DNA of 64,000 nucleotides, taken from positions 66,359 through 130,358 of the IMG/VR virus record IMGVR_UViG_3300031578_000004, one strand, 5' to 3'. The stretch comes from a virus. The position numbers and the translations under genes are program-made. The notes under the pieces are model-generated. The model saw nothing but the letters and a program-made list of their open reading frames with translations. It was not told the DNA's origin and searched no databases. Below, one piece after another: positions 1 through 61,430 of the stretch (positions are counted from its first letter, which is position 1; each line of letters starts with the position of its first letter).

Positions 1-60
1 ATATTTCAATAAAATACAGATTTTGAGATAAATTTTAGTAAATAAAAAAGGCTTTACGCC

Positions 61-438
61 TTAATTATTTATTTTTGCATATTCTTCAGATTCCCTTAAT
101 TTTTTAATTACAAATTGTTTAATGTCATGTTCATCATTTAAATCATTTGTAATATAGTCGTTAATCATATTATAAATTTCTGATTCTTCAAGTTCAATTT
201 CTTCTGCTAGTTTTATTATTTCTTCTGCATCATTTTCGTAGTTTGTAATATATTCTTTCCACCAGTCAAAATCTTCTTCTACCATTTCATAATTTTCGGT
301 TTCATCATTCCAAAAATCTGATGCTGTTATTAGGTCTGCTGTATATTCTATTCCATTTATACCTATAATAGTCAAATCTTTAATTTCAGAACAAACCGTA
401 TTACCCCTTTTACCAATTGTTTTTACTCTAATTTTCAT
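61..438 (-). CDS. Hypothetical acidic phage early protein
   Basis: ORF 61..456; ATG at 438 follows a purine-rich RBS; own sigma-A-like promoter upstream. Confidence 0.7.
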   Translation of the reverse strand: MKIRVKTIGKRGNTVCSEIKDLTIIGINGIEYTADLITASDFWNDETENYEMVEEDFDWWKEYITNYENDAEEIIKLAEEIELEESEIYNMINDYITNDLNDEHDIKQFVIKKLRESEEYAKINN

Positions 439-482
439 TTTTATTCCTTCTTTCATTTTTTATTTATTTGTTGATTTTACTA

Positions 483-512
483 ATTATAACATATCAATAA
501 TTTTATTGTCAA
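483..512 (-). promoter_or_regulatory. Sigma-A-like promoter
   Basis: Minus strand TTGACA-N18-TATAAT directly upstream of the 61..438 gene. Confidence 0.6.
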
Positions 513-891
513 TAGTATTTTATGTAGTTTTATATTATTTATGCATGTTTTTAAAATATATTTTTATATAGTTTTTTTGTGTAGATATTATAGATATTTT
601 ATATCAATATTAATAGATAAATTATAATTAATTTTATATAATGTATTATATGCCTTTGTAACGTCATAGGATTGATTTTAAGCGTGTTTGGTGATAGTAT
701 TTGTGTATAAGGTTTAAAATAAGCTGGTAGAATAAATTATGATGCTTTGTTTTTGTTGTTGTTATACTCTGTTATATGTATTTTTCGCTGATATAGAATA
801 ACGTGGCTGTTATAGCGTGGCTGTTATACTGATATTTTAGGAAATAAAAACAGACTCAACTATTTTGTCAAGTCTGTTATAGTGATTCTGT

Positions 892-1164
892 TTATATTTT
901 GCTTATTGTTTTATATATTGGTGTTATTGATATTATTAAATCCTCATAGCTGTTAATGGCTTTTGTTATATATTCTTTTGTTTGTTTCCACGTTTCCATT
1001 TTATCAATTTTAAAAGATTGTCTATAATCAGAGCCGTCAAAACTTATATGACTTTTTATAGTTGTATTAAAATTTTCTATAAACCAGTTTATTTTGTTTA
1101 TGTTTTTTGATGTGCATCTTATAATAAAATATTCTAGTTCATTTTTATATAGATATTTATTCAT
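892..1164 (-). CDS. Hypothetical protein
   Basis: ORF with AAGGAG RBS before ATG 1164; hairpin plus U-tract downstream at about 845-878. Confidence 0.6.
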   Translation of the reverse strand: MNKYLYKNELEYFIIRCTSKNINKINWFIENFNTTIKSHISFDGSDYRQSFKIDKMETWKQTKEYITKAINSYEDLIISITPIYKTISKI

Positions 1165-1266
1165 TTTATACACTCCTTTATATATTATAGTGATTCTGTT
1201 ATACTATTATTTCACGCTACAATCTTTTTTAAGCTTCTGTTATTGTTATAATACATTTTTTTTATA

Positions 1267-1644
1267 TTATTTTAGAATAATACTTTTATTTTCAAGTTTT
1301 GCTATAAATGTTTTGATTATTTCAATTCTAGCATTAATCATATTTTGACTTTCAGAGGTGAATTGTACTTCATCCCTTATATATTCTATCATATCATTGT
1401 TTAAAGGTAATATTTTATTGATACTAATATAATTGCATATATCCTTCCAAGTATTTATTAAATAGCTGTTATTATCCAGTATAACGTTATTTTCTGCATC
1501 TACTATTATGTCATTGCTTAATACTGATTTTAATATTGTTTTGATTCTGGTTATTGTATTTGAATCTATGAAGTTGTAATGATAGTAATTAGCGTACTCG
1601 ATTTTATAGGCATCTAAAATGTTTTTTATTTCTGTTTTTGTCAA
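1267..1644 (-). CDS. Hypothetical protein
   Basis: 125-aa ORF, AAGGAG RBS, TTGCAA-N17-TATAAT upstream (about 1681-1709). Confidence 0.65.
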   Translation of the reverse strand: MTKTEIKNILDAYKIEYANYYHYNFIDSNTITRIKTILKSVLSNDIIVDAENNVILDNNSYLINTWKDICNYISINKILPLNNDMIEYIRDEVQFTSESQNMINARIEIIKTFIAKLENKSIILK

Positions 1645-2074
1645 TGTGATTCACTCCTTTATATTTGATATCTAAATACTATTATACTCCTATTATATTC
1701 AATTGCAATAGTATTATTCAAATATTTTTATATTATTTGTGATTTATTTTTTTGTACTATATATAGGTAGAGATTTATTAATTAGCTCTTAACTACTGAT
1801 ATTAGATTGATATTAGATATATTTTATGCATTATATTAGCTAATTACTAATATTTGATTATATACGCTGTAAGTATTGCAATATAAGGATTCCTTTTATT
1901 TTTGTGAATTAGTGTTAGTATACTAGATAATAGGTTTAATCGGTTTAAAGGCATCCTGGAGCGTTATGGAGGTATGTTGGAGTTTGTAATTTTATAGTTA
2001 TTGTTGGTGATTGTTTATGCAGTGGATGTATAAAATTGTGAGATGCATTATAATTTTAGGCAAAGAAAAAAGCC

Positions 2075-2572
2075 CTAATTTAAAGGCTTTTCAAATTCTA
2101 AATAATAATCATTCATATCTTTTACTATCAATGGGTTTTTATATACTTCTGAAAATGTCTGATTTAAAAAATCATATGAATCAATTTCACCGATAAAATC
2201 ATTATAATAGTCTATGCATTCTTCTCCGCTGGAAAAGTGTATATTAACTATATTATTCAAATTTGGTTTTTTACCTTCATATTCATAATTAAATCTTATA
2301 ATTGTATTATCTGCATATTTGATTAAAAAAGTTTCATCTTCACTCATCTCATTTGTTAGCCAATTTTCAATGCTATATTTCAAACATTGTTTTAAATCAC
2401 TTTTATAAATTTGTGTTTTATCTTGCTTTGATTGTCTTATATATTGTTTACACCAGCTTTGCTTGTCTAGTTTACTATTCATGTATTTTGGTTCTATTTG
2501 GTTTGTGTAATCTTCATGGGTTGTTGTTAGGTTTGTAAGGTTTAAAAACTCTTGATATAACATTGTTAACAA
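2075..2572 (-). CDS. Hypothetical protein
   Basis: 165-aa ORF with AAGGAG RBS and TTGACT...TAGTAT promoter-like element upstream. Confidence 0.65.
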   Translation of the reverse strand: MLTMLYQEFLNLTNLTTTHEDYTNQIEPKYMNSKLDKQSWCKQYIRQSKQDKTQIYKSDLKQCLKYSIENWLTNEMSEDETFLIKYADNTIIRFNYEYEGKKPNLNNIVNIHFSSGEECIDYYNDFIGEIDSYDFLNQTFSEVYKNPLIVKDMNDYYLEFEKPLN

Positions 2573-3413
2573 CTCCTTATTAATTTTTATAGTTATTATC
2601 TAATATACTACTACTACTATATGTAAGAGTCAATAGCATTATACTATTTATTTTTATAGTCTTTATTCCTTATTATATGAAGTGTTTTATTAGTTGGTGT
2701 ATTAATTGTGTAGTTGATATATAAGATAGTTTATAATCAATTGTAGTAGCTTGCAGAGGTATTGTAAAAGGTGATTGTATTGGTATAGATTGTATTGTCA
2801 ACTGCTTTATATTATATAGTTAACAATAGTATTGAGTTTGATTAGTTTGATTGTCAACTTTGATATTGTAGTTAGTTAACAATATGTATAATTAATATAT
2901 GAACATTATATGCCTTTAATGGTTTAATGTTCGTGTTTATTATGTGATATGTTTGATTGATATTAATTGAGTATTGAATAATAAAACACGAACATTATTA
3001 TTATATTAGTGTTTAATGTTCGGATATTATAATATGAATTGTATCGCTACAATTATAGTATATATTGTTTAATAGTGTATTAGTACATTGGTTAATTAGT
3101 GTAGTAACTAACCTTAATACTTCAGTGAGTTGTTCGCTGTTATTACTGCCGAATTTTAGGCATATTTATGCATTATATTGTAAGTCTATACAATTACATT
3201 GGCATCCTGCAAAGCTCCAATAAACAACATCAATATACTCTTATTATTCCCTATTTTTATTAACATAATACATAACATATCTTATAATAATCATTATAGG
3301 ATATGTTTTTAATATATAATAAATGACTGTAAAGCCTTATATATCAACGTTTACAAGGCTTTTACTGATATACAATCAACAAATCAGCTTATGTAGTGGG
3401 GCATAGTTTACAT

Positions 3414-3428
3414 TGATAATCATTATCA
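3414..3428. promoter_or_regulatory. Perfect Fur-box palindrome TGATAATCATTATCA
   Basis: Exact match to the 7-1-7 Fur consensus TGATAATnATTATCA. Confidence 0.55.
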
Positions 3429-4154
3429 TTTAGCAGGATGGAGCATGAGTACATCAACAAACACACCCACTTTAAAATACGAAATCGACTCTCCAAAATT
3501 ACATAAAAATACAAAACAAAAAACCCAAAAACCCTTCCTCACACTCGACTAAATTATCGTACACCCTTTTCCACTCCTATTCCATAAGGGGGCGTACATT
3601 AACAACCAACACACTAAAAACACCCTATACACCACCATACCCTTACAAAACACTAACATATTACGACTGTAATCCATAAACTCAATATCCAATAATCCAC
3701 TAAACCTATAAATACCAATACTTCAACTATATTTCTAATACTATATCTAAACCATAACCGAACACCATTTCACATACCCTCTCTCCAAATACCACATTAA
3801 TCCTAAACAAAACTTCCCACCCTTCCCATATAAATCTACCACTAAAATATAAACTATCTTAAAACTCATTACAATACCCAACTCCAAACCACCTCACTCC
3901 CAAATTCAAACCCCACTTCACGACAATAAAAAAGTAGGGCATTAAACCTTACTAAAAATTACACTATAATCCTTATCTTTTCCTTCAAACCATTCATGTT
4001 GTCTAACAAATCTTCTGGAAATATATAAATAGCACGATGTTTAATTGTTTCACAAGTTTCTATCTTTGCAATCGCATAAAAGTAAGTTATAAATAGAGGA
4101 ATTTGTGAAAAAATATAGAAGTAATATAAGAAATTTGCAAAAGGGGGAAACAAA

Positions 4155-4610
4155 ATGAAAAAATCAATTTTTAAACGTTGGTGGTTTTGGGTAATTATTG
4201 TTGTAGTTTTAATAGGTGCGATTAGTTCGCAAGGGGGAAATGATGTAACTCCAACACAAAGCACAGCTGCACCAGCTCCGGTAAAAGAGGTAATGCCAGA
4301 AGTTGTTGTTACTGCAGCAGACCTTTCTGCAGCTTTTGAAGCTAATGAAGTAAAAGCAAATAAGGATTATAAAGATAAATTAGCTGAAATTACAGGAACA
4401 GTTGACAGTGTCGGTGAAATGCTAGGTCAGACATTTGTAGTGTTATCATCTGGTAAAGATTTTTCAATTGTGAATGTTCAATGTTTTTTTGATGATAAAG
4501 CAGAAATAGATAAAATTGCTGAACTTAATAAAGGAGATACAGTTACTATTATGGGAAATATTGATGGAATGTCGATGAACGTAGGAGTAAATGGTTGCAT
4601 TCTTAAATAA
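4155..4610 (+). CDS. Membrane-anchored OB-fold protein (tRNA_anti-like family)
   Basis: N-terminal TM (KRWWFWVIIVVVL), then AFEANEVKANKDYKDK...ITGTV...KGDTVTIMG pattern typical of this family. Confidence 0.75.
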   Translation: MKKSIFKRWWFWVIIVVVLIGAISSQGGNDVTPTQSTAAPAPVKEVMPEVVVTAADLSAAFEANEVKANKDYKDKLAEITGTVDSVGEMLGQTFVVLSSGKDFSIVNVQCFFDDKAEIDKIAELNKGDTVTIMGNIDGMSMNVGVNGCILK

Positions 4611-4713
4611 ATATTAAAATATAAAAACTGTCTACAACTTTAAGTAGTCAGTTTTTTCTTTGGAATATATTCAATTAAATCTGTAAGACAAGCTATTTAA
4701 CAATCATTATAGT

Positions 4714-4740
4714 AAAAAAGCCAGAGCTTTCGCCCTGACT
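4714..4740 (-). terminator. Intrinsic terminator of the flagellin gene
   Basis: Minus strand GTCAGGGC-GAAA-GCTCTGGC followed by TTTTTT. Confidence 0.8.
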
Positions 4741-4770
4741 CCTTAATATATCTATTGTAAGTTTTTTCAA

Positions 4771-5640
4771 TTACCTTAATAATTGAAGTACACCTTGTGG
4801 AGCTTGGTTTGCTTGAGCTAACATAGCTGTTGCTGCTTGATTAAGGATGTTATTCTTGCTGAACTCCATCATTTCCTTTGCCATGTCTACGTCACGGATT
4901 CTAGATTCAGAAGCCGATAAGTTTTCTGATGATGTATCTAGATTCTTAATAGTATGTTCAAGTCTATTTTGCAATGCACCTAATTGTGATCTTTGTGTAG
5001 AAACTTGACTGATAGCTTCGTCGATAGCACCCAATTGATTGTCAAAAGATGTAAGGGTGCCGGATGCTCCAAAAGTTTCAACATCTATAGTATCCATTGT
5101 TAAAGACGAAGCAGGGGTGGCACCAATTGTACCTAATGCATCAGAGCCCATATCTGCCACGTTTATTTTTAACGTTTGACCCGCGTTAGCGCCAATTTGT
5201 AAATCAATACTAACAGCTGAATAAGCTCCATTCAACAAAGTTTTTCCATTGAATTCTGTTCTGTCTGAAATTCCTGTAATTTCATCTGATAAAGCAGTTA
5301 TCTCAGTTTGAATTGCTGCTAAATCTTCATCTGCGTTTGTTCCGTTACCAGCTTGAACAACTAGCTCACGCATACGTTGCAAAATTGCATGTGATTCGTT
5401 TAATGCACCTTCTGCCGTTTGTATCAATGAAATACCATCTTGTGAGTTTCTTGAAGCTTGATTTAACCCTCTGATTTGACCTCTCATTTTTTCTGAGATA
5501 GAAAGACCAGCAGCGTCATCTCCTGCTCTATTGATTCTTGAACCTGATGATAACTTCTCCATTGACTTGGCATTGGCATTTGCATTGATACCTAATTGTC
5601 TGCTTGTGTTCATTGCCATTATGTTCGTGTTTATTCTCAT
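4771..5640 (-). CDS. fliC: Flagellin (short, Bacillota type)
   Basis: MRINTN...EKLSSGSRINRAGDDAAGLSISEKMRGQIRGL; C-terminal SRIRDVDMAKEMMEFSKNNILNQAATAMLAQANQAPQGVLQLLR. Confidence 0.98.
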   Translation of the reverse strand: MRINTNIMAMNTSRQLGINANANAKSMEKLSSGSRINRAGDDAAGLSISEKMRGQIRGLNQASRNSQDGISLIQTAEGALNESHAILQRMRELVVQAGNGTNADEDLAAIQTEITALSDEITGISDRTEFNGKTLLNGAYSAVSIDLQIGANAGQTLKINVADMGSDALGTIGATPASSLTMDTIDVETFGASGTLTSFDNQLGAIDEAISQVSTQRSQLGALQNRLEHTIKNLDTSSENLSASESRIRDVDMAKEMMEFSKNNILNQAATAMLAQANQAPQGVLQLLR

Positions 5641-5669
5641 AAAATTTCCTCCTTAGACGCGTTAATTTA

Positions 5670-5681
5670 CACATCCATGTG
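5670..5681 (-). promoter_or_regulatory. CsrA-binding hairpin in the flagellin leader
   Basis: Minus strand CAC-ATGGAT-GTG with ANGGA in the loop, plus AAGGAGG Shine-Dalgarno; same arrangement as the B. subtilis hag leader. Confidence 0.7.
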
Positions 5682-5708
5682 ATTTATTTACAAACTGATA
5701 TTATCAGT

Positions 5709-5927
5709 CTATATCGATATTAAAGGTTTGACTAATTCTGTTCTCAAAATTTGTATACTCTTTGGAGCATCTATTGCTACTCTAAACAAGTCACCACTTG
5801 TTTTTAGAAAGAATATAGAAATTACTCCATCTGAGGTTTGAAACTTGATTGACTCACCAACTTTTCTACCTAAAACCAACCCTCCTATGTTGTTTACTTT
5901 TGATGATTTCTTTATTATATTGCTCAT
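5709..5927 (-). CDS. csrA: Carbon storage regulator CsrA/RsmA
   Basis: LVLGRKVGESI...VAIDAPKSIQILRTEL matches the CsrA signature; N-terminal extension. Confidence 0.88.
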   Translation of the reverse strand: MSNIIKKSSKVNNIGGLVLGRKVGESIKFQTSDGVISIFFLKTSGDLFRVAIDAPKSIQILRTELVKPLISI

Positions 5928-6008
5928 TTGTTTTCCTCCTTGATTGATTCGGTAGTTTATTTAGTAGTTCCATCTACAAAATTTGTTGTTTTGTTGTCCT
6001 TAGTTATT

Positions 6009-6035
6009 ATATCGGAATATTTTAATAATACATTA
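6009..6035 (-). promoter_or_regulatory. Sigma-D (FliA)-like promoter for csrA-fliC
   Basis: Minus strand TAAT-N15-TCCGATAT versus consensus TAAA-N15-GCCGATAT. Confidence 0.6.
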
Positions 6036-6439
6036 GTGATTTTTTTAGATTTTTTTAATATAAGTGGAATGTTCGTTTTTACTTATTTATCTCAACCTCA
6101 ACCGTAACCTTCTTGCCCTTTTCCCCCGACCTTATAATCCCCACGATATAGCAGTGTTACTGTCTCCACGTTCCTCCGTTTTTAATACCATTTTATCACA
6201 TCTACAATTTAAAAACCGTTCTCTGTAGCAAAACTAATTTGTCAGCGTACAAACTGCGGGGAATTAAACCCGTCTTTGATTAAAGCAACCCCCATTATGT
6301 CAATTATATAGCATCAACTGTACAATGTAAGCATTGATAAAAACGACACAGAATTGATTGTAGATTAATTCAATTTTAAATTGTCACCTTTCAATATCAT
6401 TTAAACATGACCTATATTTTAATATTTTTTTACTCTGCA

Positions 6440-7042
6440 TTATTTGTTAAATTCCTGCCTGATTTCTTGTATAGTTGAAACTAATGCTAACATTTCCTCA
6501 TAGTTCTCATGTATATAATTAGATATCTCCCTATCTAACTCTGCAAAAAATTCATATAGCTTAGCATCATACTTGTATTTATCAAATAAAATTAGTGCGC
6601 CATCACTTCCCATTAAATACTTTTTAGTAATGAATCGTTTTGCATATCCTAATGCTAAAACTGCGTATCCATAAGTGATACTTCCTGTTCCTCTATACTT
6701 CAGCCTTGCTTTAGACCATTTCTCAAGTCTTGAAAATAAATACTTATATTGTCTTTTATCTAACATATATGTTGATAATCTGCAAATATATCCAAATGCT
6801 ATGGCTGAAAGCTCATAAGAATAATTTACTTTATCTTGGTGTTTTATATCTATTTGAAGAAGTCTTTTATCATCCATAAAATCATTCAGAATTTTGTCTA
6901 TAACATACAAAGACATATCAACAGCAATTGAATTAATTTTACTACTGTCTTTAACTGTAATCCTAATATATATTGTTTGTAATACCTTCCAAGTTATTAA
7001 TATTGTCAGTGCATATGTAACATATTTAATAAACATTTTCAT
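6440..7042 (-). CDS. Hypothetical membrane-anchored protein
   Basis: 200-aa ORF with N-terminal hydrophobic segment and AGGGAG RBS. Confidence 0.6.
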   Translation of the reverse strand: MKMFIKYVTYALTILITWKVLQTIYIRITVKDSSKINSIAVDMSLYVIDKILNDFMDDKRLLQIDIKHQDKVNYSYELSAIAFGYICRLSTYMLDKRQYKYLFSRLEKWSKARLKYRGTGSITYGYAVLALGYAKRFITKKYLMGSDGALILFDKYKYDAKLYEFFAELDREISNYIHENYEEMLALVSTIQEIRQEFNK

Positions 7043-7222
7043 TTCTCCCTTTACACATTTTTTGAGGCTTCTCTAATTTATGCCATCATCTCTTCTTACT
7101 ATAATTCGCAATTTTCAAGTTTCTCCTTTTAATTTTATTTATTAAAAGTTATATAATAAATGAGCCTCTACGGTCATTGTAGAAGCTCTAGAAAGTTATC
7201 CCGTTAAAGGTAGACAGAAATA

Positions 7223-7618
7223 TTAATACAGCCAATTTCCATTACTATCTACTCTACCTTTTAATTTTGGTAGTATACCTAGCTTTTCCAAAATAATTCC
7301 CGTTAGGCTTCTTCCATTTTGATAAAAATATCCGTTTTGTTTATCTCCTTCATCCATTATGTACCCAAGTGTTTTTGCATTTCTTAATGTGTTTTCTTTC
7401 AAATCTAATGCTGTTACTTTCTCTTGTGTTAAGCTTAATGGCGAATAAAAAACATTTGTATTAGTGTCGACATAAACAATGGCATTGTCTGGAATTGTTC
7501 CCATAGAACCAATTGTAAGTCCCAAACCCAACAAAGCCACGATTGCAATTATTAGATTTAGCGTATATTTTTTTATCTTTTCCAATAAAAACACCCTTTC
7601 ATATAATACAATGAACAT
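7223..7618 (-). CDS. Hypothetical membrane-anchored protein
   Basis: ORF with one N-terminal TM helix; true start probably about 10 codons inside. Confidence 0.6.
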   Translation of the reverse strand: MFIVLYERVFLLEKIKKYTLNLIIAIVALLGLGLTIGSMGTIPDNAIVYVDTNTNVFYSPLSLTQEKVTALDLKENTLRNAKTLGYIMDEGDKQNGYFYQNGRSLTGIILEKLGILPKLKGRVDSNGNWLY

Positions 7619-7663
7619 AAGTAATACAAATTCGAGAGTAATATACCAAATTTTCTTCTATGT

Positions 7664-7915
7664 TTATTTATTCAAATCATCTAAGCTCTTTTTAGTTGGT
7701 GGGCGACATACTTTACATGCTTCTAATCCATCATATAAAGCCCTAGAGAGATTTATATCTATCGCTTTACCTTTTACATATCTACAATTCATACGGTGAT
7801 ATTTTGCCCCTGCTGATGTTTTATAGACTGATATATCATTCTTTGGGGCTTGATAACATGATGTGAGTGATAAACACAATATAACTAATAATAACATTAG
7901 CAATTTTCTTTTCAT
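7664..7915 (-). CDS. Small lipoprotein with Ada-like metal-binding motif
   Basis: Lipobox LTSC; KYHRMNCRY...GLEACKVCRP. Confidence 0.7.
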   Translation of the reverse strand: MKRKLLMLLLVILCLSLTSCYQAPKNDISVYKTSAGAKYHRMNCRYVKGKAIDINLSRALYDGLEACKVCRPPTKKSLDDLNK

Positions 7916-8205
7916 ATAATTTCATCCTTTGGTATACATATAGCTATTAGAACTTTCAGAATAATTCCCCCTATTATATATGTAAATACAATAATAGAAT
8001 ATTTAGTTAAAAGTGTATGGCTAATTTCGTAGCCTAGTATGATTAAGTATATTTGTGATACAAACGGAAAACATAAACTTGCTAATCCCCATAAAACCCC
8101 GTTTATAGTATAAATAATATAAGCAGTCCACAAATGAATCCCTCCACCAACTAATCCTAATAAAATATTAACAATAAAACTTACATAGAATATGCTTTTT
8201 CTCAT
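7912..8205 (-). CDS. Hypothetical multi-TM membrane protein
   Basis: 97 aa, hydrophobic, GGAGG RBS. Confidence 0.65.
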   Translation of the reverse strand: MRKSIFYVSFIVNILLGLVGGGIHLWTAYIIYTINGVLWGLASLCFPFVSQIYLIILGYEISHTLLTKYSIIVFTYIIGGIILKVLIAICIPKDEII

Positions 8206-8597
8206 AATATTACCTCCCTTATTTTTACAACCACATTAATCCCTCTTTCAAATTAATAACATATATATCAACATTGAACACATACCTTTTTAATGAATAG
8301 AACCACAAATTGTTCGCTTGCACCCAATCCATCCTATAGATATCAAATGTTCCCCTTTAGTATAAAAATAAACAGCGTAACCTTCAGCATCATAACTTTT
8401 TTTATAATATTCCCACCCGCAAGAATTTAATAATATTATGCCTTTTCCCATTGAAGCAGTTTAAGCACGATTACACATAACCATCATAAATTAGTCCTCC
8501 TTCATTAATATTGTTATATATAGACTTTCTCGATGAGCATTTGTCGACTTTTAATAATAAAAATCTATCCTAATTTTAAGCTGTTTAGATCAACCTT

Positions 8598-9346
8598 TTA
8601 TTGAGATATATCTTTATTCTTTTGTTTCAGTAACATCTTTAGAGACTCTACAGTACTATATTCCCCTTGGCCAGCAGGTACTAATAATACATAATTTTCT
8701 ATGCAATTGAGATTTTCTATATCAGTTGTTTTCTGATCCTCATAATAATCTTCTACTATGGAATCTACACAGTCTTGCTTCTCTTCTCTGTATTGTATTT
8801 CATATGTTGCAACCTTAACTCCACACTTACTACAATATTTCTCGTTATCTATGATAACATTACCACATTGTGTGCAATACTTTGCTAATTTACTAACTTC
8901 TATTGAATCACTCTCATCATTATTTTGTATAACATCATAGTTATTTTGTCTTTGATCGATTCCATAATTATTTAATCCGCTGTAACTTCCCTTAACTAGT
9001 AAAAATATATAAAATACTAGGTTAACTATAGGAATATAGCCGATTATAAAATACCCCCTGGCAAATTTATATCATGTAATCTCCTTATAAAGTTAACAAT
9101 AGATATCCAGACTATTAATAATGTAGCTGGAAGAAAAATCTGACGGGCAAATTGATATGTATATTTAAATGTTTTAAAAGCCTCTCTATTATTTGTTCTG
9201 CCTATCTCTATCATTGTCTTATTTACATTACTAAGCCACACGCTTAATATAACAAAGGCAAAAATTGTGACAATGAAAGTAATAGCATATCTTATTCTTG
9301 TATTCCGCCCCTTATAAAAAAAAACTTTATTTAAGAACTTTTTCAT
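8598..9346 (-). pseudogene. DUF805-type membrane protein plus zinc ribbon, frameshifted at a G5 run (9054-9058)
   Basis: GRNTR...RRLHDINLPG ends in frame; the neighbouring frame continues YFIIGYIPIVNLV...NNYG...CTQCG...YCSKCG to a stop at 8598. Confidence 0.65.
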
Positions 9347-9735
9347 TAATATTACCTCCTTATATTTTCTTTTCAGAGTGTATCTTATCGATTTCTTAAT
9401 TATAAAACTTTACATTTGATTATACGTTTTAGTTATTATTATAGTCATCAATAAATCTTTCTCTTCTGCTATTAAATTCTCTCCCTTTTCTTTTGTATAT
9501 TGCTTCTTAAAATTCGCATTATCTCATAGAAGATAAAAATAAGTTCTCTTGCCTATAGTAGCTATGGGAAATATCCTCTTACGTATTAACTTATACATGA
9601 GTTTATTAAATTCTTAGCTCATTATTTAATTATGTACTAAACATTTGAATGTCATTTCTGGGATAAGAATCAATGAAGGTTCACCAATTACTGCTACTAT
9701 TGCATTTCCCTCCAATCACTTAACACCAATAATTA

Positions 9736-10299
9736 CTATTTAAAAGCTTTCCACATTTCAGCTTCAGCTTCAGTTACCGCATTATTAATTTTAACATAAT
9801 TAGAAAAGCTCCGAACCGCCTGAATACCTCCAAATAATATAGCACCCCAAGTAACGACGTATGTTCCGCCACCACTATTTACCGCAGCCATATAGCTTCC
9901 AAAAGTAACCACTAATCCACCGATCAACCACGCCATGCCAACCGCAACTGATCTTTTAGCCTCTTCTTTATATGGCTTGACCTCCTCATACAGTGCATGA
10001 ATATACCGTTCAATGTCTGCCGCAGTAGCACGAACACTACTATAATATGACGACGATCTTTTATCAGTAGTTTGTTGCTGAGACGCTCCCTCTTGATAAA
10101 ATGCATCCCAGTAATTCTTTTGTGCAGGATCTGCTAATATTGCGTACGCTTCCGCAACGTCCCTGAATTGAGCAGTCATTTGTTGGCTCCCGCCGTTTAA
10201 GTCAGGATGTGTCTCCTTTGCCAAGCGACGAAAAGCGGATTTAATCTCGTCAGTTGGCGCATTGGTTGGAACACCCAAAACTTCGTAAGGATTTTTCAT
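9736..10299 (-). CDS. J-domain (DnaJ-like) membrane protein
   Basis: NPYEVLGV...AFRRLAKETHPD...AEAYAILAD; C-terminal TM hairpin. Confidence 0.88.
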   Translation of the reverse strand: MKNPYEVLGVPTNAPTDEIKSAFRRLAKETHPDLNGGSQQMTAQFRDVAEAYAILADPAQKNYWDAFYQEGASQQQTTDKRSSSYYSSVRATAADIERYIHALYEEVKPYKEEAKRSVAVGMAWLIGGLVVTFGSYMAAVNSGGGTYVVTWGAILFGGIQAVRSFSNYVKINNAVTEAEAEMWKAFK

Positions 10300-11282
10300 T
10301 TTTTTACCCTCCCTTTTCTTTGTACCATTAATTCCTAAGTTCTGCATTATCAATTAAAGTCCTTTAATAATTATGAACTGGATTGACTTATTTTCTAATT
10401 TAATAGTTACCATTAAAACTCATTATAATTTATCTAACCAATTAAAACAATCTTAACCAATAAAAAACCATTCCCCATACTAAAACAAAATCCCACCCAT
10501 AACAATCCCTCACCATATCCTCTCCGAATTACAATCTATTCCCACAGCCACTTTTACCCACTTTACCTATAAACACCTTACTCACTATATAAATGTCTCA
10601 AACTTACTTTAAATTAACCATATCAAACTAAATATAAAAAACATTTAAACACCCACTGTTTACACCTCACACTTAACACACTATACTGTTTAGTCTATAA
10701 CCTTAACACGCAAATTAACCGCAATTCAAACACAAATCTATCCACAAAACAAAAGGATGCTCTCAAACACCCTCACAAATCACATCACATTTATACCCTT
10801 AATTTTAATTCCAAGGTAACTTATCAACAAAACCCATAACCTTATCTAACCAAATCCCAAACCCAAACAATACACTAATAATACTTTCCACATTATAATT
10901 ACTTAAATACACCATTATAAATCTTCTATTTTTCTTTAAATTTCTCATATTTTACCTCACTTTTAAAGAATTTTTACATATAATTAAAGTATTTTACTAA
11001 AATCTAACCAATACCATTTTATTAACATTTTGGTATATTATTGTTTTTTAGGAATTTTTTTATTAGATATTTATTTTTTATTCTCTTTAGCATATAATGT
11101 ATTTGAGGTGAATATTTATGTTAAGTCAGAGAAGATAAATAATTCAAAATATAAGTAGCAAAATTATTATTTGTCATTTATTATTTGAGGATTTGGTTGT
11201 GGATAACTTTGTCAATATTTGTGACAGTTTTATATTTTAATCGAATTTTAAAACATTAAACAAATAATATAAAAATAATTTA

Positions 11283-11310
11283 TTGACAAGGTAGAAATGC
11301 GTGATATACT
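11283..11310 (+). promoter_or_regulatory. Sigma-A-like promoter heading the plus-strand region
   Basis: TTGACA-N16-TATACT with TG extension. Confidence 0.6.
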
Positions 11311-11351
11311 TAATTTAGGATTGAAAAATATATTTAGAAAGGAGGAAAATA

Positions 11352-11630
11352 ATGGTTAAAATAATAGAAACAAATTTATCATTAGATGCTTGTAATGAAA
11401 TAAAAGACCATCAATCAAGAGTAATAGAAGTTTTTGATTGGAATTCTTACATAAATGAAATTAAAGAATGCAAGTCTATAAACAGAAGTAGTGTAATAGG
11501 AAGTTTATACGGTTATTCTATACCTAAAGAATCTACAGTTGTAAACCTTACATATGATGATAAACATTTAGATTGTGATGTTATTAATAGATTCGGAATT
11601 AAAACTAAAAAATTAGTTTATTTGGTTTAG
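11352..11630 (+). CDS. Hypothetical phage protein
   Basis: AGGAGG RBS, 92 aa. Confidence 0.7.
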   Translation: MVKIIETNLSLDACNEIKDHQSRVIEVFDWNSYINEIKECKSINRSSVIGSLYGYSIPKESTVVNLTYDDKHLDCDVINRFGIKTKKLVYLV

Positions 11631-11672
11631 TAGAATAAACAATATAAAATAGTAAAAAGAAAGGAGGAAAAG

Positions 11673-12023
11673 ATGTTTAATTTATTTAAAAAGTATTATA
11701 TTAAAGAGTTTACAATAAGTGATTTTAGCGAAGGTAGACATGGTTACAACAACTCATATACTCATACTTGTGCTAATGTATCATATACAGGCATATATAA
11801 AGGTGAAAGTTATTCTTATACTTATAATTTACATTCTAGTAAAGATGGTTATTATTTTTGGAGTAAAGTAGGAGAAGATAGTATTAGTAAGGAATATGCT
11901 TATAAGTTTGCCACAGATATTAAAAAGGGAAAATATAAAAATATTATTAAGAATTTACTAGAGAATGATTTTAAGAAATGTATGATTAAAATGGAATATG
12001 AAAAATTAAGTTTAGTAAATTAG
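11673..12023 (+). CDS. Hypothetical phage protein
   Basis: AGGAGG RBS, 116 aa. Confidence 0.7.
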   Translation: MFNLFKKYYIKEFTISDFSEGRHGYNNSYTHTCANVSYTGIYKGESYSYTYNLHSSKDGYYFWSKVGEDSISKEYAYKFATDIKKGKYKNIIKNLLENDFKKCMIKMEYEKLSLVN

Positions 12024-12036
12024 AAAGGAGAAAAAT

Positions 12037-12234
12037 ATGGAAAGTAAAATAGATATTAGAACAGAAGTATATATGATTAAAAATAATAAAGACAAATATA
12101 TACTTCCTGTAGCATATGAAACTAAGGGATTTGCAGAATTTATCATGGAAGTAAAATTTAATTCTCTGTGGATACATAATAATTGGGTTGAGGTTATAGT
12201 TATTCCAGTAAAGTTTTTAAAAGAAACGTACTAA
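12037..12234 (+). CDS. Hypothetical phage protein
   Basis: AAGGAG RBS, 65 aa. Confidence 0.6.
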   Translation: MESKIDIRTEVYMIKNNKDKYILPVAYETKGFAEFIMEVKFNSLWIHNNWVEVIVIPVKFLKETY

Positions 12235-12278
12235 CAAATAATATAAAAATAAATATAATTTAGAAAGGAGGCACTTAT

Positions 12279-12716
12279 ATGAGAGATATAAAATTTAGAG
12301 CATGGGTGAAAGAAGTTTATGAAAATGGAGAATTTCAATATGGAGGGTATATGATAGATAATATTCACTCTTTGAATTTCAGTAAAGTTACAAACTTAAT
12401 GCTCGGTGTGACCCCTGTAGGAATTAGTTATTATCAACCAATGATGTATTTTGGGTCAATTGAAAATCTAAAGCAAGAGGAAATTGAGTTAATGCAATAT
12501 ACAGGATTAAAAGATAAGAACGGCAAAGAGATATATGAAGGTGATATAGTTGGATTTAAAGGCATAAGAGCAAAAATAATTTATGGATTTTGCGGATTTG
12601 AGTTTGAATGGATTGATGGCAACACTGATAAAATAAGACAACGCAAAACGGAAGAAATGTTTGAAAACACATCTATAATTTTTGAAGTAATCGGCAACAT
12701 ATACGAGGTGAAATAA
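12279..12716 (+). CDS. YopX family protein
   Basis: MRDIKFRAW...LMQYTGLKDKNGKEIYEGDIV...EVIGNIYE. Confidence 0.93.
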   Translation: MRDIKFRAWVKEVYENGEFQYGGYMIDNIHSLNFSKVTNLMLGVTPVGISYYQPMMYFGSIENLKQEEIELMQYTGLKDKNGKEIYEGDIVGFKGIRAKIIYGFCGFEFEWIDGNTDKIRQRKTEEMFENTSIIFEVIGNIYEVK

Positions 12717-12910
12717 TGAAATACATCTATGTAATCTTATGTGGAGACACTGTATCAGGACTAGGTTTTGATTCATTTGAGAAAGCTGAACAGTGGTTAA
12801 TTACAGAAAGGGATTGTGAGAGAGTGGGTAATGATTGGATTTATAAGGATAAGAGTGCTGATAGATGTAATTGTTTTTATTATAAGATAAAAGAAGTTAA
12901 GATTGTTTAG
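12716..12910 (+). CDS. Hypothetical phage protein
   Basis: Coupled to the YopX gene (TAATG overlap), GAGGTG RBS. Confidence 0.6.
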   Translation: MKYIYVILCGDTVSGLGFDSFEKAEQWLITERDCERVGNDWIYKDKSADRCNCFYYKIKEVKIV

Positions 12911-13025
12911 TGTTGTGAGGTTATGAATAAAATATATAAAAATAATAAATAAAATCAAACTAACAATACATCAATAAATAAATATACAATACGAAACCAC
13001 AAATGTGAATTGGAGGATTATTAAT

Positions 13026-13208
13026 ATGGTATATGTAATAAAAAATGAAAGGCTAAGAGATTATTTATATTGTCTAGGTTTTAATTATAAACAAACAACA
13101 GATAAAAACCAAATACAAGAATACATATATTTATTTAAGAAAACAGAAAAATTATTAGAAGCAATTACTTACTACACAAACTTTAAACAAGACCAAAAAC
13201 ATAATTAA
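13026..13208 (+). CDS. Small DUF5659-like protein
   Basis: GGAGG RBS; VIKNERLRDYL...GF...IYLFKKTEKLLEAITYY pattern. Confidence 0.55.
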   Translation: MVYVIKNERLRDYLYCLGFNYKQTTDKNQIQEYIYLFKKTEKLLEAITYYTNFKQDQKHN

Positions 13209-13320
13209 AAAACAAAACTTAATAACGAACAAAACAATCATAAAATAAAACAAGTTTTAAGCGAAGAAGAGATTATTATTTTCTCTTATTATATCTTTAA
13301 TTACTATTACTACACCTTAA

Positions 13321-13410
13321 TGAGGTACACGATTTATGTACCTGAGATTTGGCTTCTACTTGTTTTGAGGTACATGAATTATGTACCTGAGATTTTTTAC
13401 TTGTTTTTGA
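13321..13410. repeat. Two tandem copies (45-nt period) of a palindromic AGGTACA-N7-TGTACCT box
   Basis: TGAGGTACAcgatttaTGTACCTGAGATTT at 13321 and TGAGGTACAtgaattaTGTACCTGAGATTT at 13366, each followed by TACTTGTTTT. Confidence 0.85.
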
Positions 13411-13491
13411 TAAGTTTTTAAGTGTTTGATTTATAAGGGTTATGTAGGTTTTAAATGTAAATATCATGTTGATTTAGGAGGAAATTATATC

Positions 13492-14454
13492 GTGACAAAA
13501 AACAAGTATTTTTCAAAAATACCAAACAACTTATTTTATCTAAAAAGTAAAAAAAGTATATTTAAAATAACAAATGATTATAATGTTTTGTTTGTATTGG
13601 ATTATCTCTATACTAATACAAATAGGAGAAATCAAACTTTATTTACAATAGAAGATATTGTTAGGTATTGTGGACTTAAACCAGATGCTCACAGAGGTAA
13701 GAGTAATAATAGAATAAAAAGTATTGTAATAATGTTAAAGGAACTAAATTTAATTAATGATGATACAGATTATAGTCTGTTGGGAACTAAAGGTTATAAA
13801 AATGATAAAGATATATTATATACAAATCTAAACCTATTCAAGAAAAATAAAGAAGGTAATGATGTAGAGTTTGTATTATTAGAAGATAATGAAAGAAATA
13901 AGATTGTAAATACAGATACAAATCTTGATAAAACAAAACTACTATTCTATTATTTGTATTTAAAATCAAGAATATATAAAAGAAATGCTGAAACAGAGGG
14001 AGATTTAATTATGAATGGTGGAAAATCTGAGTCAGCATATATAAGTTTTGAAAAAATAAATGAGGATACTCTCCTTACAGCAGATACAATTAATAAATAT
14101 AATGAAGTATTAGTGGATTTACATTTAATTAAATATGATAGAGCTGAACACTGGTATTATAAAAGTGACCCTAATAAAACCACTTATGAAAGTTGTAATG
14201 TTTATGTTTTATATAATAATGGTAATTTTAAAACCAATTTAAAAGAAGGTATAAAACAATATAAATTATTCTATTCAGAGAAAAGAGTGTTTACTAAAAA
14301 TGAATATACTAACAATAATAGAAGAATTAATGGTAAAATAGGTAGATTATCTTATCTTGAGAGAATCGGTAAGGCTACTGAACAACAAATATTAGAGAAA
14401 AATGATTTAATTAAGTTGGTAGAATCTGAAAAGGAAAAGTATCTAACAAAATAA
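13492..14454 (+). CDS. Putative winged-helix DNA-binding / replication-initiator-like protein
   Basis: GTG after AGGAGG; FSKIPN start and two helix-turn-helix-like segments (FTIEDIVRYCG, ISFEKINEDTLLTADTINKYNEVL); repeats upstream. Confidence 0.5.
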   Translation: MTKNKYFSKIPNNLFYLKSKKSIFKITNDYNVLFVLDYLYTNTNRRNQTLFTIEDIVRYCGLKPDAHRGKSNNRIKSIVIMLKELNLINDDTDYSLLGTKGYKNDKDILYTNLNLFKKNKEGNDVEFVLLEDNERNKIVNTDTNLDKTKLLFYYLYLKSRIYKRNAETEGDLIMNGGKSESAYISFEKINEDTLLTADTINKYNEVLVDLHLIKYDRAEHWYYKSDPNKTTYESCNVYVLYNNGNFKTNLKEGIKQYKLFYSEKRVFTKNEYTNNNRRINGKIGRLSYLERIGKATEQQILEKNDLIKLVESEKEKYLTK

Positions 14455-17391: not shown

Positions 17392-17979
17392 ATGACATGT
17401 ATTATAGGTGTATTTGATAAAGAACAAAATTGTGTTTATATAGGAGCGGATAGTTTAGGTTCAAATGGATATAGTCAACAATTATTTAGAAATAAGAAAG
17501 TATTCAAAGCAACAGATAATTCAAATATAGTAATGGCTATTAGTGGAGATTATAAACTCTCTAATATATTGTCTATAGAGGATAAATTAGTTGAAGAGTT
17601 GAAAGAATTGAAAAACGAAGTTAATATTTCACATATTATTCAATATACAGTTCCTAAAATAATTGACTCTGCTATGAAATATAGATGTTATAAGAATAGA
17701 GATGGGTATGTAAGTATTGAAGGAGATATTATATTTGCATATAAAAATCAATTATATATAATAGAAAGTAATTTACAGGTTTTAGAGTCTGATGATGATT
17801 ACTTAGCTAGTGGTTCGGGGAAACAATTCGCTATGGCAGTACTTTCACAGAATAAAGATAAAAGTACCATAGATAGAATTAAAGAAGGTTTAGAGGCATC
17901 TGAGAAGCATGGTATTGGTATTAAAAGACCTTTTTATATTATGAATACTAAAGATGATAAAGTTATTAAGATTGATTAA
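17392..17979 (+). CDS. Ntn-hydrolase (HslV/proteasome beta-like) peptidase
   Basis: N-terminal Thr (MTCIIG), GADS motif, ASGSG...AMAVL. Confidence 0.75.
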   Translation: MTCIIGVFDKEQNCVYIGADSLGSNGYSQQLFRNKKVFKATDNSNIVMAISGDYKLSNILSIEDKLVEELKELKNEVNISHIIQYTVPKIIDSAMKYRCYKNRDGYVSIEGDIIFAYKNQLYIIESNLQVLESDDDYLASGSGKQFAMAVLSQNKDKSTIDRIKEGLEASEKHGIGIKRPFYIMNTKDDKVIKID

Positions 17980-27869: not shown

Positions 27870-28454
27870 ATGAATAATACATTTGTCAAAGTAGAAGATG
27901 GAATAAGTATCTATGAAAAAATGTATAATGAATTACTTGATAATAGAATTTTATACTTGAATAGTGATATAGATGACAACACCGTAGATATGATAACTAT
28001 GCAAATAATAATAGCAAATGAAAGAGAAAAATCAATACAAGAAAGCGAATTGAAACCTATATGGATTTATTTAAATAGTTACGGTGGTTCAGCCGATGTA
28101 TGTCTTCATTTAATTCAAGTAATTGAAGAATCTCGTATTCCTATAAATGTAAAGGTTTTAGCAATGGCTGCTTCAGCAGGTTTATATCTAGCAGTGGCTT
28201 GTAAACATAGAGTTAGTTCTAAAAACTCTATCTTCCTACTTCATAAAGGAAGTATTCAGATTGCAGGAAATATGAGCGAGGCAGAAGAAATTATGGATTT
28301 CTATAAGAATGAAGTACAAGAGAAAATGGATGATTTACTTATAAGAAGAACTAAGATTACCAAAGAAGAATTAAAGAAAATTAGACGAAATGAAACATAT
28401 TGTTTAGGGGAAAAGGCTTTAGAACAATATGGGTTTATTGATGAATTAATATAA
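27870..28454 (+). CDS. ClpP-family serine protease
   Basis: RILYL, YLNSYGG, AASAG (Ser), LLH (His), YGFIDELI. Confidence 0.88.
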   Translation: MNNTFVKVEDGISIYEKMYNELLDNRILYLNSDIDDNTVDMITMQIIIANEREKSIQESELKPIWIYLNSYGGSADVCLHLIQVIEESRIPINVKVLAMAASAGLYLAVACKHRVSSKNSIFLLHKGSIQIAGNMSEAEEIMDFYKNEVQEKMDDLLIRRTKITKEELKKIRRNETYCLGEKALEQYGFIDELI

Positions 28455-60215: not shown

Positions 60216-61430
60216 ATGGTAACTCAGGCAGAATATGATCTAATGTTTCAATCTGTAAGAGAATTGTATATAAGAATGGCTGTATTGGATATGAATGATA
60301 ATATAGTCGATAGAATAGAAGGATTTTTAATTGATGGAAATATCACGATTGATAATTCTTCCTCTATAAGAAGAACAGCAGACAGTATAAAACTATATTT
60401 AAAAAATAATTTTATTCCTGCTCCTGATAGTCCAATATGGTTAAATAAAAGATTTAAATTAGAAGTGGGAATAAAATCTATAAAAAATGACCAAATATAT
60501 TACTTTAATTTAGGCATATTTAGTTATGACCAACCTCAAACAAACATAAGTCTTGCTGAACATACTATTACCATTAAAGGTGTAGATAAAATGGCTTTCC
60601 ATGATGGAACTTATAATGGGAAATTAGATGTCCCTAAAACAATTTGTAATGTAGATGCACCTATAAGTCAAGCAATAAGAGCAACCATTACTGGGTTAGG
60701 ACATGAGACAAAATGTATAATTGAAGATTGTGTTGATGATAGCGGTGTTATTAGAAACGTTCCTTATAAACTCGAAAAAGATATCGGGAGTACAGAATGG
60801 GATATAATAAAAGAATTGTCAAATTTATATATGTGGTATCAATGTTACTATGACATTGATGGTTTTTTTAGATATGAGAAATATAAATTTAGATTAACAG
60901 ACCCTATTATATGGGATTTTTCAGATTATGATTTTAGGATAACAAGCCAAACAATAGATGATTTTCAAAATGTAAGAAATATAATAAAAGTATATGGTGG
61001 AGAACAAGGTGATGGCACTCAACCAAGTGCAATAGCAAGAAACGATGACCCAACCAATAAATATTCAACTGTAAATATAGGGGAACGGATTTTACCTATA
61101 TCTGAGACGACATATTATAATGTATCCCAGTGTCAAGATTGTGCAGATTATAATTTGTTTCTTCATAGTAACTTAAATGAAAAAATTTCAATTAGTTGTT
61201 TACCCATATATTTAATTAATGATGTTAATACATTAATTAAATTTAATGTCCCTGCTCATAATTTAAAAGGAGTCTATATGGTAGATAAAATAGGTTTTCC
61301 TTTGAAAATAGATGGGACTATGACAATAGATGCTCATAAGATTTATGATTTGACATCTCAAGAAGATAATGTTCTTTATCCTAATGGTCGATTGTATCCA
61401 GAGGATGGATTATATCCTAATATTAATTAA
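60216..61430 (+). CDS. Putative baseplate hub / tail protein
   Basis: GNITIDNSSSIRRT...YFNLGIF...YYDIDGFFRY...RNIIKVYG. Confidence 0.6.
   Translation: MVTQAEYDLMFQSVRELYIRMAVLDMNDNIVDRIEGFLIDGNITIDNSSSIRRTADSIKLYLKNNFIPAPDSPIWLNKRFKLEVGIKSIKNDQIYYFNLGIFSYDQPQTNISLAEHTITIKGVDKMAFHDGTYNGKLDVPKTICNVDAPISQAIRATITGLGHETKCIIEDCVDDSGVIRNVPYKLEKDIGSTEWDIIKELSNLYMWYQCYYDIDGFFRYEKYKFRLTDPIIWDFSDYDFRITSQTIDDFQNVRNIIKVYGGEQGDGTQPSAIARNDDPTNKYSTVNIGERILPISETTYYNVSQCQDCADYNLFLHSNLNEKISISCLPIYLINDVNTLIKFNVPAHNLKGVYMVDKIGFPLKIDGTMTIDAHKIYDLTSQEDNVLYPNGRLYPEDGLYPNIN

Follow-up and report, generated by a model that had tools for sequence, protein, structure and literature searches.

The stretch of DNA analyzed here (the window, 64,000 nt) is the right half of a linear IMG/VR virus record of 130,358 bp, IMGVR_UViG_3300031578_000004, which has a G+C content of 28%. 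On the minus strand near the left end of the window lies a small cassette that pairs a csrA gene with a flagellin gene. A sigma-D/sigma-28-type promoter is predicted at 6009 to 6035 (TAAT-N15-TCCGATAT), 81 nt 5' of the csrA start. It is followed by a 78-nt csrA leader with four GGA triplets as predicted CsrA-type sites (5928 to 6005), by csrA itself (5709 to 5927; 72 aa, PF02599), by a 68-nt spacer that forms the flagellin leader and holds hairpins and a Shine-Dalgarno (SD) sequence (5641 to 5708), and by a gene whose 289-aa product is recognized by Pfam and NCBIfam as a Hag-type flagellin (4771 to 5640). The unit closes with an intrinsic terminator identified by folding against shuffled sequences, with a G+C-rich stem, a GAAA loop, and a U run (4714 to 4745). 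An earlier reading of the letters without database searches (the sequence-only reading) had described complete minus-strand flagellin and csrA genes, a sigma-D-like promoter, leader hairpins, and a terminator, and we recovered every one of them where it had been placed. The cassette has its own promoter-like motif and terminator and stands among phage genes, and it is presumably dispensable for the virion; its assignment as a self-contained moron with the order promoter-csrA-flagellin-terminator in a phage accessory region is well supported.

The csrA gene begins with an ATG at 5927 that has AAGGAGG 7 nt upstream, and a relative that is 83% identical (P0002) has the same length. Its product matches PF02599 with 44.6 bits (cutoff, 27), the match starting at residue 17 after a 16-residue N-terminal extension, and it falls short of the NCBIfam CsrA equivalog TIGR00202 (40.5 bits against a cutoff of 70.1). 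Residues 16 to 67 align to the solved chains of RsmE and of the Bacillus subtilis and Geobacillus CsrAs, and the counterparts of L2, L4, R6, R44, and E46 are all kept and are invariant in our CsrA alignment. The protein ends 10 residues past the RNA-binding Arg, before the position of the Asn discussed below, with a Pro at +6 and a nonhelical tail. Likewise, in an AlphaFold2 model (mean predicted local distance difference test score, 84), the beta core is followed only by a 3-residue turn, and there is no helix of 4 residues or more.

In CsrAs under the control of FliW, binding of FliW needs an Asn in the helix past the last strand (N55 in B. subtilis and Campylobacter jejuni, N56 in Geobacillus); an Ile or Val four residues before it also contributes, and C. 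jejuni CsrA lacking residues 56 to 75 has nearly lost FliW binding, according to the part of the source available to us (PMC7829508). We scored this site as an Asn 11 residues after the RNA-binding Arg. It was present in none of the 11 phage CsrAs encoded next to a flagellin and in 38 of 40 flagellin-adjacent cellular CsrAs from GTDB (Fisher test, p about 1e-9), as well as in 20 of 23 such CsrAs from metagenomes. Within the cellular set, the exception L017 has its Asn offset by one residue and does have fliW, and L020 (56 aa) was counted as canonical even though its Asn may be there by chance. The phage tails are 6 to 25 residues long in nine cases and longer, with unrelated sequence, in two. 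For canonical CsrAs, a fliW gene lies upstream in 33 of the 37 cellular loci with enough upstream DNA and in 18 of 19 metagenome loci. The window CsrA has neither the C-terminal helix with its Asn nor an adjacent fliW, and we predict that it is FliW-blind, which strengthens the view that it would act outside host control. Outside the viral set, L045 has a canonical fliW-csrA-flagellin locus followed by a second locus with a tail-less pair, and L150 has a tail-less csrA before two tandem flagellins.

Close relatives of the window CsrA are few. A word-indexed search of 5.8 billion proteins returned only the protein itself and one that is 83% identical, and an exhaustive HMMER search of 1.84 billion representatives gave 120 proteins at an E value of ≤0.001, only 2 of them at ≤1e-10. 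There was no match by tblastn in phage and plasmid collections, and metagenomes scanned with the three closest CsrAs yielded no relative. After 30 longer, mostly tandem forms and 5 proteins without a recognizable motif had been set aside, the Asn was seen in 1 of 84 single-domain nearest relatives, whose median tail is 13 residues. Because these relatives are likewise short-tailed and devoid of the Asn, we place the window CsrA in a tail-less branch of the family and do not regard it as a fresh copy of a host gene.

The flagellin matches Flagellin_N (PF00669) over profile positions 1 to 137 of 139 (E = 4.4e-49) and Flagellin_C (PF00700) over positions 1 to 86 of 86 (E = 8.3e-33), and it exceeds the cutoff of the NCBIfam model NF009446, "flagellin Hag" (417.7 against 352 bits). 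Its N- and C-terminal helical regions (D0/D1) are complete and enclose a short variable middle; relatives that are 79 to 89% identical differ almost solely at residues about 139 to 197, the terminal regions being nearly invariant. From these kept termini, we infer that the phage flagellin can be exported through the type III flagellar pathway and assembled into filaments. As a protein the flagellin is ordinary; all 8,000 scored candidates of a word-indexed search matched (at least 8,000 matches). The best nonself matches are 76 to 87% identical and lie on short contigs, except for one at 78% on a 2.39-Mb contig, and the best named ones come from Tepidibacillus (72%) and Clostridium sp. Cult1/[Clostridium] ultunense (69%). 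When the flagellin was used to scan metagenomes, 80 loci were obtained at an identity of at most 66%, with no close relative of the cassette among them.

Both genes appear to be wired for control by motility regulators. The sigma-D consensus of B. subtilis is TAAA-N15-GCCGATAT, which agrees with the promoters of the cellular hag loci that we examined, and the window promoter matches it at 10 of 12 positions with a 15-nt spacer. Scanning the phage cassettes for TAAA, 14 to 16 nt, and GCCGATAT with at most two mismatches and a CGATA core (background, 0.11 per kb in these loci) gave a sigma-D-type match in 8 of 11, seven of them 23 to 81 nt 5' of csrA and one between csrA and flagellin. The window promoter occupies a position homologous to that of better matches in other phage cassettes. 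In cellular loci the sigma-D promoter lies instead between csrA and hag, roughly 90 to 110 nt before the start codon (twelve hag leaders). No protein with a sigma-70-family region 2 was found in the whole record, so a host sigma factor would be needed. A scan with a general sigma-70 pattern was uninformative (18 sites against 16.2 expected).

Since the csrA-flagellin spacer holds no sigma-D match with two or fewer mismatches, the two genes are probably cotranscribed. The spacers measure -11 to 76 nt in seven phage cassettes, for which cotranscription of csrA and flagellin is likewise the simplest reading. A weak -10-like element, ATCGATAT, whose -35 is poor, overlaps the end of csrA at 5718 to 5711 on the minus strand; some separate transcription of the flagellin gene could start from it. 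Downstream of the flagellin gene, the terminator (4745 to 4714) folds at -20.7 kcal/mol (z = -4.62), as well as which none of 200 shuffles folded; a simple pattern scan for terminators had missed it.

Predicted CsrA-type sites precede both cistrons. In the csrA leader one GGA lies at 5999 to 5997, one in the hairpin GUAG-AUGGAA-CUAC (5977 to 5964), and two in the SD sequence AGGAGG(A) at 5940 to 5935; the fold of this leader is no better than that of shuffles (z = -0.31). GGA was present in the csrA leaders of all seven cassettes examined, often as the SD sequence in a small hairpin loop. The flagellin leader has a predicted CsrA-type hairpin, CACA-UGGA-UGUG (5681 to 5670), ahead of the SD sequence AAGGAGG (5654 to 5648), and a second hairpin at 5708 to 5694, immediately 3' of the csrA stop; its fold is matched by 2 of 200 shuffles (z = -2.85). 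With a GGA in a loop and another overlapping the SD sequence, it resembles a CsrA-repressed leader of the hag type as far as its letters allow, and the hairpin motif is letter-identical to that of the cellular hag leaders L012, L016, and L057. The flagellin leaders of the phage cassettes, like those of cellular hag genes, retain both the GGA-in-loop hairpin and the SD-overlapping GGA. Together the two window leaders (146 nt) contain 2 GGA-in-loop hairpins and 7 GGA triplets, where about 0.08 and 1.4 would be expected from genome-wide rates (0.57 hairpins and 9.3 triplets per kb per strand), and hairpins of this kind are absent from the 1,146 bases of coding sequence in the transcript. A weakened CsrA site in the phage leader (AUGGA for AAGGA) was considered and rejected, as cellular leaders use the same variant. 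The sequence-only reading had the phage plugging into the host motility regulon, and both the promoter and the shared leader hairpin fit that view.

The pairing of csrA with flagellin recurs in other phages. Scanning IMG/VR with the window flagellin first turned up 8 loci, and Pfam annotation of their 129 open reading frames (ORFs) revealed true phage neighborhoods: L084 has holin and amidase genes directly upstream, L085 has the genes for both terminase subunits (small and large) and for the portal directly downstream, and integrases, Rep3 (L081), and Gam are among the neighbors of other loci. A wider search, made with aligned phage flagellins, raised the number to 41 distinct viral flagellin loci. 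The flagellin gene had csrA directly upstream in 10 of them and no upstream DNA in 6; with the window added, the csrA-flagellin order was found in 11 of 36 evaluable loci. The csrA and FliW profiles used here were built from cellular loci, the FliW profile was checked on L013 (Pfam FliW, E = 2.7e-43), and the viral CsrAs were confirmed with Pfam. FliW was not found within 5 kb of the viral flagellin in any of the 41 loci, nor in the window locus (0 of 42 overall). It is well supported that the window cassette belongs to a recurrent class of phage csrA-flagellin units, never accompanied by fliW in the loci examined. Short CsrAs also occur by themselves in viruses: 14 viral contigs of high G+C content (L094 to L107) carry a lone one, and flagellin was found within 3 kb of it in 0 of 14.

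The partners of a flagellin are missing from more than the vicinity of the cassette. The sequence-only reading had noted no fliW or other flagellar genes in the window; in the whole record, FliW (PF02623) gave no match at an E value of up to 1 and FliS was not found. With FliS, FliW, and a sigma factor all absent from the record, the cassette would need the host flagellar machinery. We also found no TnpB/TldR-type domain (PF07282) in the record and no such ORF near the cassette.

How the flagellins relate to cellular ones was assessed in a FastTree phylogeny of 200 flagellin-family rows, in which support values are local and Shimodaira-Hasegawa-like only and FlgL-like proteins of the same loci form the deepest split. 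The csrA-linked phage flagellins scatter over different cellular clades, L109 standing beside Bacillus xiamenensis and L108 beside Ornithinibacillus, and the window flagellin groups with unnamed proteins, among them the one from the 2.39-Mb contig, in a nine-member starred clade. The flagellins thus lie next to varied cellular clades, while the window CsrA is not host-type but part of a tail-less branch. That the flagellins follow hosts and the CsrAs do not fits repeated capture or recombination of flagellins within a persistent cassette design. The tree also holds a ten-row clade composed of viral contigs only, without csrA upstream (L115 to L119, L121, L123, L124, L126, and L135); these contigs span 12 to 386 kb, several being 90 to 386 kb long.

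There is good support for regarding the carrier of the cassette as a large phage or phage-plasmid, probably temperate, whose hosts are anaerobic, spore-forming Bacillota. PHROG matches from 13 kb of the window onward include portal, tape measure (1,845 aa), tail-fiber, and weak terminase-like proteins. Three recombinases (one of the large serine type, two of the tyrosine type) and a lysin are encoded in the left half of the record, along with PolIII alpha, a RecD-like helicase, an NAD ligase, an anaerobic ribonucleotide reductase (NrdD), a SpoIIID homologue, and MazE/MazF-like proteins. The cassette itself sits between a leftward and a rightward block of genes, amid small ORFs without family matches. 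Phage genes thus lie on both sides of it, which supports the view of the sequence-only reading that the cassette is phage-borne.

That reading had also named a chimeric join with the host chromosome as an outcome that would undo it, and independent assemblies speak against one. In each of three soil metagenome runs (X1, X2, and X3), two of which may be the source sample, 97 to 98% of the sampled words of window positions 3600 to 7400 were present, and contigs made with another assembler tile this interval and span both flanks of the cassette. For example, an 11,994-nt contig of X1 spans 3600 to 5361 and a 7,211-nt contig spans 5332 to 7400, and in X3 three contigs correspond to 3600 to 4861, 4832 to 5625, and 5596 to 7252. 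With both junctions bridged by contigs in all three runs, we consider an assembly chimera unlikely. Soil metagenomes contain this phage lineage at about 15 to 80x. At positions 5988 and 6003, in the csrA leader just 3' of the -10 element, the contigs of all three runs carry A in place of the G of the window (plus strand), a difference that may stem from strain variation or from a mistake in the record. A fourth run from another year, X4, holds a relative of the cassette region at 90 to 95% likeness. One of its contigs matches 5509 to 6059 and is unlike the window beyond that; another matches 4708 to 5047 and has 3,301 foreign letters between 4688 and 4708. The likeness thus ends just outside the terminator (~4708) and the promoter (~6059), as for a module that moves as a unit, a pattern that is suggestive given that joints at 90 to 95% likeness can stem from other organisms. 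Eleven of the 12 differences listed for 4771 to 5047 fall at third codon positions; 20 further differences over the whole stretch lie outside this count. This pattern, together with the nearly invariant terminal regions, points to a flagellin kept by constraint.

On this evidence, the reading that we favor, with moderate confidence, is that the cassette is a lysogenic-conversion moron that would remodel the host filament while dosing flagellin independently of FliW. The late-flagellar sigma factor of the host (sigma-D) would transcribe csrA and flagellin jointly, so that the unit would be on only in cells that are building flagella. The CsrA-type sites on both cistrons would allow dosing by host CsrA as well as phage CsrA. 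The phage flagellin would be exported by the host flagellar apparatus and join the filament, altering its exposed middle domain. The phage CsrA would keep its RNA-binding core without the helix and Asn through which FliW frees CsrA from RNA; it could then repress hag-type leaders, those of the host and its own, regardless of the Hag-FliW-CsrA partner switch of the host. As a result, total flagellin synthesis would be capped or lowered, and the balance of host and phage subunits would be set by mRNA supply.

Several observations weigh against this reading. The flagellin of the phage should itself be repressed, because its leader keeps host-type sites, and such self-repression would leave a simple logic of replacing the host subunit incomplete. 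Expression, export, assembly, and RNA binding are all predicted from the genes and their signals, and FliW-blindness is read from missing residues; moreover, a 2020 study by Oshiro, going by its title, is said to place FliW in contact with the CsrA core as well. With its two mismatches, the window promoter does not reach significance on its own: 22 equal matches occur on the two strands of the 130-kb record. CheckV estimates the record to be about 78% complete, and fliW or another partner could lie in the missing part. Among evaluable viral flagellin loci, 25 of 36 are without csrA, so csrA is not needed for a phage to carry flagellin. Finally, tail-less CsrA-flagellin pairs without fliW occur in L020, L021, L045, L150, and L183, cellular or metagenome loci with no obvious phage genes nearby; the class is not phage-specific, and we dropped the notion that such pairs are always phage-borne.

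The shared leader sites bear on another suggestion of the sequence-only reading, namely, that the phage uses its CsrA to silence host flagellin. As a selective action this is not evident, since the phage flagellin leader keeps the same sites. Since the repressor would not discriminate by sequence, any bias toward the phage subunit must come from mRNA supply or translational coupling. The csrA and flagellin genes overlap in L083 and L085; the 68-nt spacer of the window does not suggest coupling.

Motility might instead be shut off altogether. A FliW-blind CsrA would block translation of host hag while the phage flagellin, acting as a decoy, soaked up cytoplasmic FliW and so freed host CsrA; with fewer flagella, resources would be spared and flagellotropic competitors would lose their receptor. 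The lack of FliW-binding determinants in the phage CsrA would suit this purpose, and motility-silencing CsrAs on mobile elements are described in the accessible parts of two papers, namely, RsmQ (PMC9928087) and CsrT of Legionella integrative and conjugative elements (ICEs) (PMC7366521). FliW-flagellin binding depends on a conserved Asn, as far as the available text of PMC12327847 goes, and two Asn residues of the C-terminal block of the flagellin, N225 and N240, are invariant in 8 of 8 aligned phage flagellins; either could be the counterpart of Hag N255. A decoy, however, would have no need of a variable surface domain, nor of export and polymerization regions kept along their whole length. 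For shut-off a lone CsrA would be enough, and the 14 viral contigs above show that lone phage CsrAs exist, while the majority of evaluable viral loci (25 of 36) have the flagellin without csrA. We regard this explanation as unlikely.

Equally doubtful, in our judgment, is a bolder proposal, that Bacillota phages evolved a flagellin takeover switch as a protein-only counterpart of TldR-FliCP, the RNA-guided module of Enterobacter phages. A CsrA that FliW cannot release would lock hag translation down and override the assembly checkpoint of the host, and the phage flagellin would be favored by cotranscription with the repressor gene and, in some cassettes, by translational coupling to it. If this were true, lysogens would bear filaments with a surface of the phage's choosing, with altered recognition by flagellotropic phages and by the immune receptors of animals and plants.

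A somewhat poorer candidate is dosage control in cis only, in which CsrA would cap the phage's own flagellin when the element is multicopy or replicating and any effects on the host would be incidental. With one transcript supplying both, the ratio of repressor to mRNA would be fixed and would not depend on the limited FliW pool of the host. This accords with the apparent single transcript of 7 of 11 cassettes (promoter before csrA; spacers of -11 to 76 nt), with the GGA sites ahead of both cistrons, and with plasmid-like carriers such as L081, with its Rep3, and Bacillus phage EZ-2018a, present at ~1.8 times chromosomal coverage according to the part of its genome announcement at hand (PMC5920177). 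Yet host and phage leaders share motifs, so that host hag cannot escape, and the carriage of a flagellin would be left unexplained.

That the cassette is a functionless passenger, either recently captured host DNA or a phage-host join made in assembly, is very improbable: csrA beside hag is the normal order in Bacillota (csrA lies within 400 nt upstream in 40 of 79 cellular loci), the 5-kb bin with the cassette has a G+C content of 31.4% versus 28.0% for the record, and phage flagellins adjoin different cellular clades as captures would, but contigs of three runs bridge both flanks, the CsrA is not host-type (few close relatives, a score below the equivalog cutoff, no FliW tail), fliW is absent even though it precedes the canonical csrA in 33 of 37 cellular loci, the promoter has shifted to a position preceding csrA, which is also its place in 6 other phage cassettes, and ORFs and signals are intact, with third-position changes dominating against the X4 relative.

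The surroundings of the cassette hold further features. Convergent with the flagellin gene, and with a terminator region common to both, is a plus-strand gene (4155 to 4610) for a 151-aa protein with a tRNA_anti-like oligonucleotide/oligosaccharide-binding fold (PF12869, E = 4.3e-32) and an N-terminal hydrophobic segment. Next to it, 1.6 kb (2573 to 4154) are devoid of any ORF of at least 60 aa and contain paired palindromic repeats, with two ATTGTCAAC...GTTAACAAT units at 2794 to 2884 and an exact 14-nt inverted pair at 2925 to 2997; this stretch may be an origin or operator region. Scans of positions 1 to 14000 of the window for tRNAs and Rfam families gave no match. On the other side are genes for a DnaJ-domain protein (9736 to 10353), a proteasome-subunit-like protein (17392 to 17979), and a ClpP-like protease (27870 to 28454). 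Outside the window, the SpoIIID homologue (PF12116, E = 4.4e-31) is encoded on the minus strand at 60785 to 61045 of the record (L093:3785-4045), near a tyrosine integrase and the MazE/MazF-like genes; a phage-borne sporulation regulator suggests interference with host sporulation.

Flagella are costly, are a main target of innate immunity, and serve as the receptor for many phages. To our knowledge, phage control of flagellin has been shown only recently and only in enterobacteria, with an RNA-guided repressor. Recurrent csrA-flagellin units in phages of spore-forming Firmicutes suggest that independent lineages arrived at the same strategy, acting on translation rather than transcription. 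The cassettes would also supply natural CsrA variants that have, by prediction, shed FliW control and could be useful for dissecting the partner switch.

The nearest cellular parallel is the Hag-FliW-CsrA switch of B. subtilis, with which the cassette shares a predicted sigma-D-type promoter, a Hag-type flagellin, and a csrA immediately upstream, as well as a flagellin leader with a GGA hairpin and an SD-overlapping site, judging from the portions of the literature accessible to us (PMC13443453, PMC7829508, and PMC7366521). It departs from that switch in having no fliW and a CsrA without the C-terminal helix and Asn. Compared with cellular hag loci, it is carried by a phage and has its predicted promoter before csrA, rather than between csrA and hag, and a spacer of 68 nt; in the twelve cellular leaders the sigma-D -10 element lies roughly 90 to 110 nt before the start codon.

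The nearest phage parallel is TldR-FliCP of Enterobacter phages, where a phage flagellin under a host sigma-28-type promoter is likewise encoded with a repressor of flagellin; the available parts of two papers report that it changes the filament, motility, TLR5 recognition, and gut colonization (PMC10705468 and PMC13418256). That repressor is RNA-guided, derives from TnpB, and acts at the host promoter, and mutations in the target let the phage copy escape, whereas the window unit has no TnpB/TldR, a predicted translational repressor, no visible self-escape, and a Bacillota host. The same two sources describe csrA-tldR-fliC loci of Clostridia, which also tie a csrA gene to an extra flagellin gene. 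Their CsrA, probed by RNA immunoprecipitation sequencing in Escherichia coli, bound a flagellin 5' untranslated region at a GGA stem-loop. In the text at hand, the 2023 preprint detected no bacteriophage association for these loci and the 2026 paper calls them chromosomally encoded (PMC10705468 and PMC13418256). TldR is part of these loci, as is often a hin invertase; neither was seen in the window cassette.

Mobile elements are known to carry CsrA/Rsm regulators that can reprogram host behavior, including motility, among them phage alleles and CsrT of the ICEs (PMC7366521) and plasmid RsmQ (PMC9928087), and the cassette resembles them in this respect; a pairing with flagellin is not described for these homologues in the parts of the two papers available to us. 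The survey of phage csrA found alleles in 30 of 2,517 phage genomes and, in the text accessible to us, names phages of Pseudomonas and Burkholderia; its main text contains none of the terms "Bacillus phage," "Clostridium phage," and "Firmicutes" (PMC7366521). Our search for a published phage csrA-flagellin cassette or FliW-insensitive phage CsrA, which reached the open literature and few subscription journals, found no description of either.

One relative of the cassette has a cultured host. Bacillus phage EZ-2018a (CP027117.1; L229, 72173 to 76075) has, in the order seen in the window, a sigma-D-like promoter (TAAA-N15-GACGATAT), a CsrA-like ORF, and a flagellin 61.8% identical to that of the window. 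Unlike the window CsrA, its CsrA-like ORF scores 24.6 bits against the Pfam cutoff of 27 and has lost the Arg of the first strand. The public record was deposited without annotation; the available text of the genome announcement presents EZ-2018a as a 118,485-bp extrachromosomal element of cultured Bacillus pumilus 145 and contains the word "flagellin" nowhere (PMC5920177). With this cultured carrier, and with a published B. subtilis csrA fliW reporter system that accepts foreign CsrAs, according to the portion of the paper at hand (PMC13443453), the idea is directly testable. Set beside these systems, phage modules that remodel flagella and CsrAs on mobile elements are both known, and what appears new in the present genomes is a recurrent phage csrA-flagellin unit with a tail-less CsrA.

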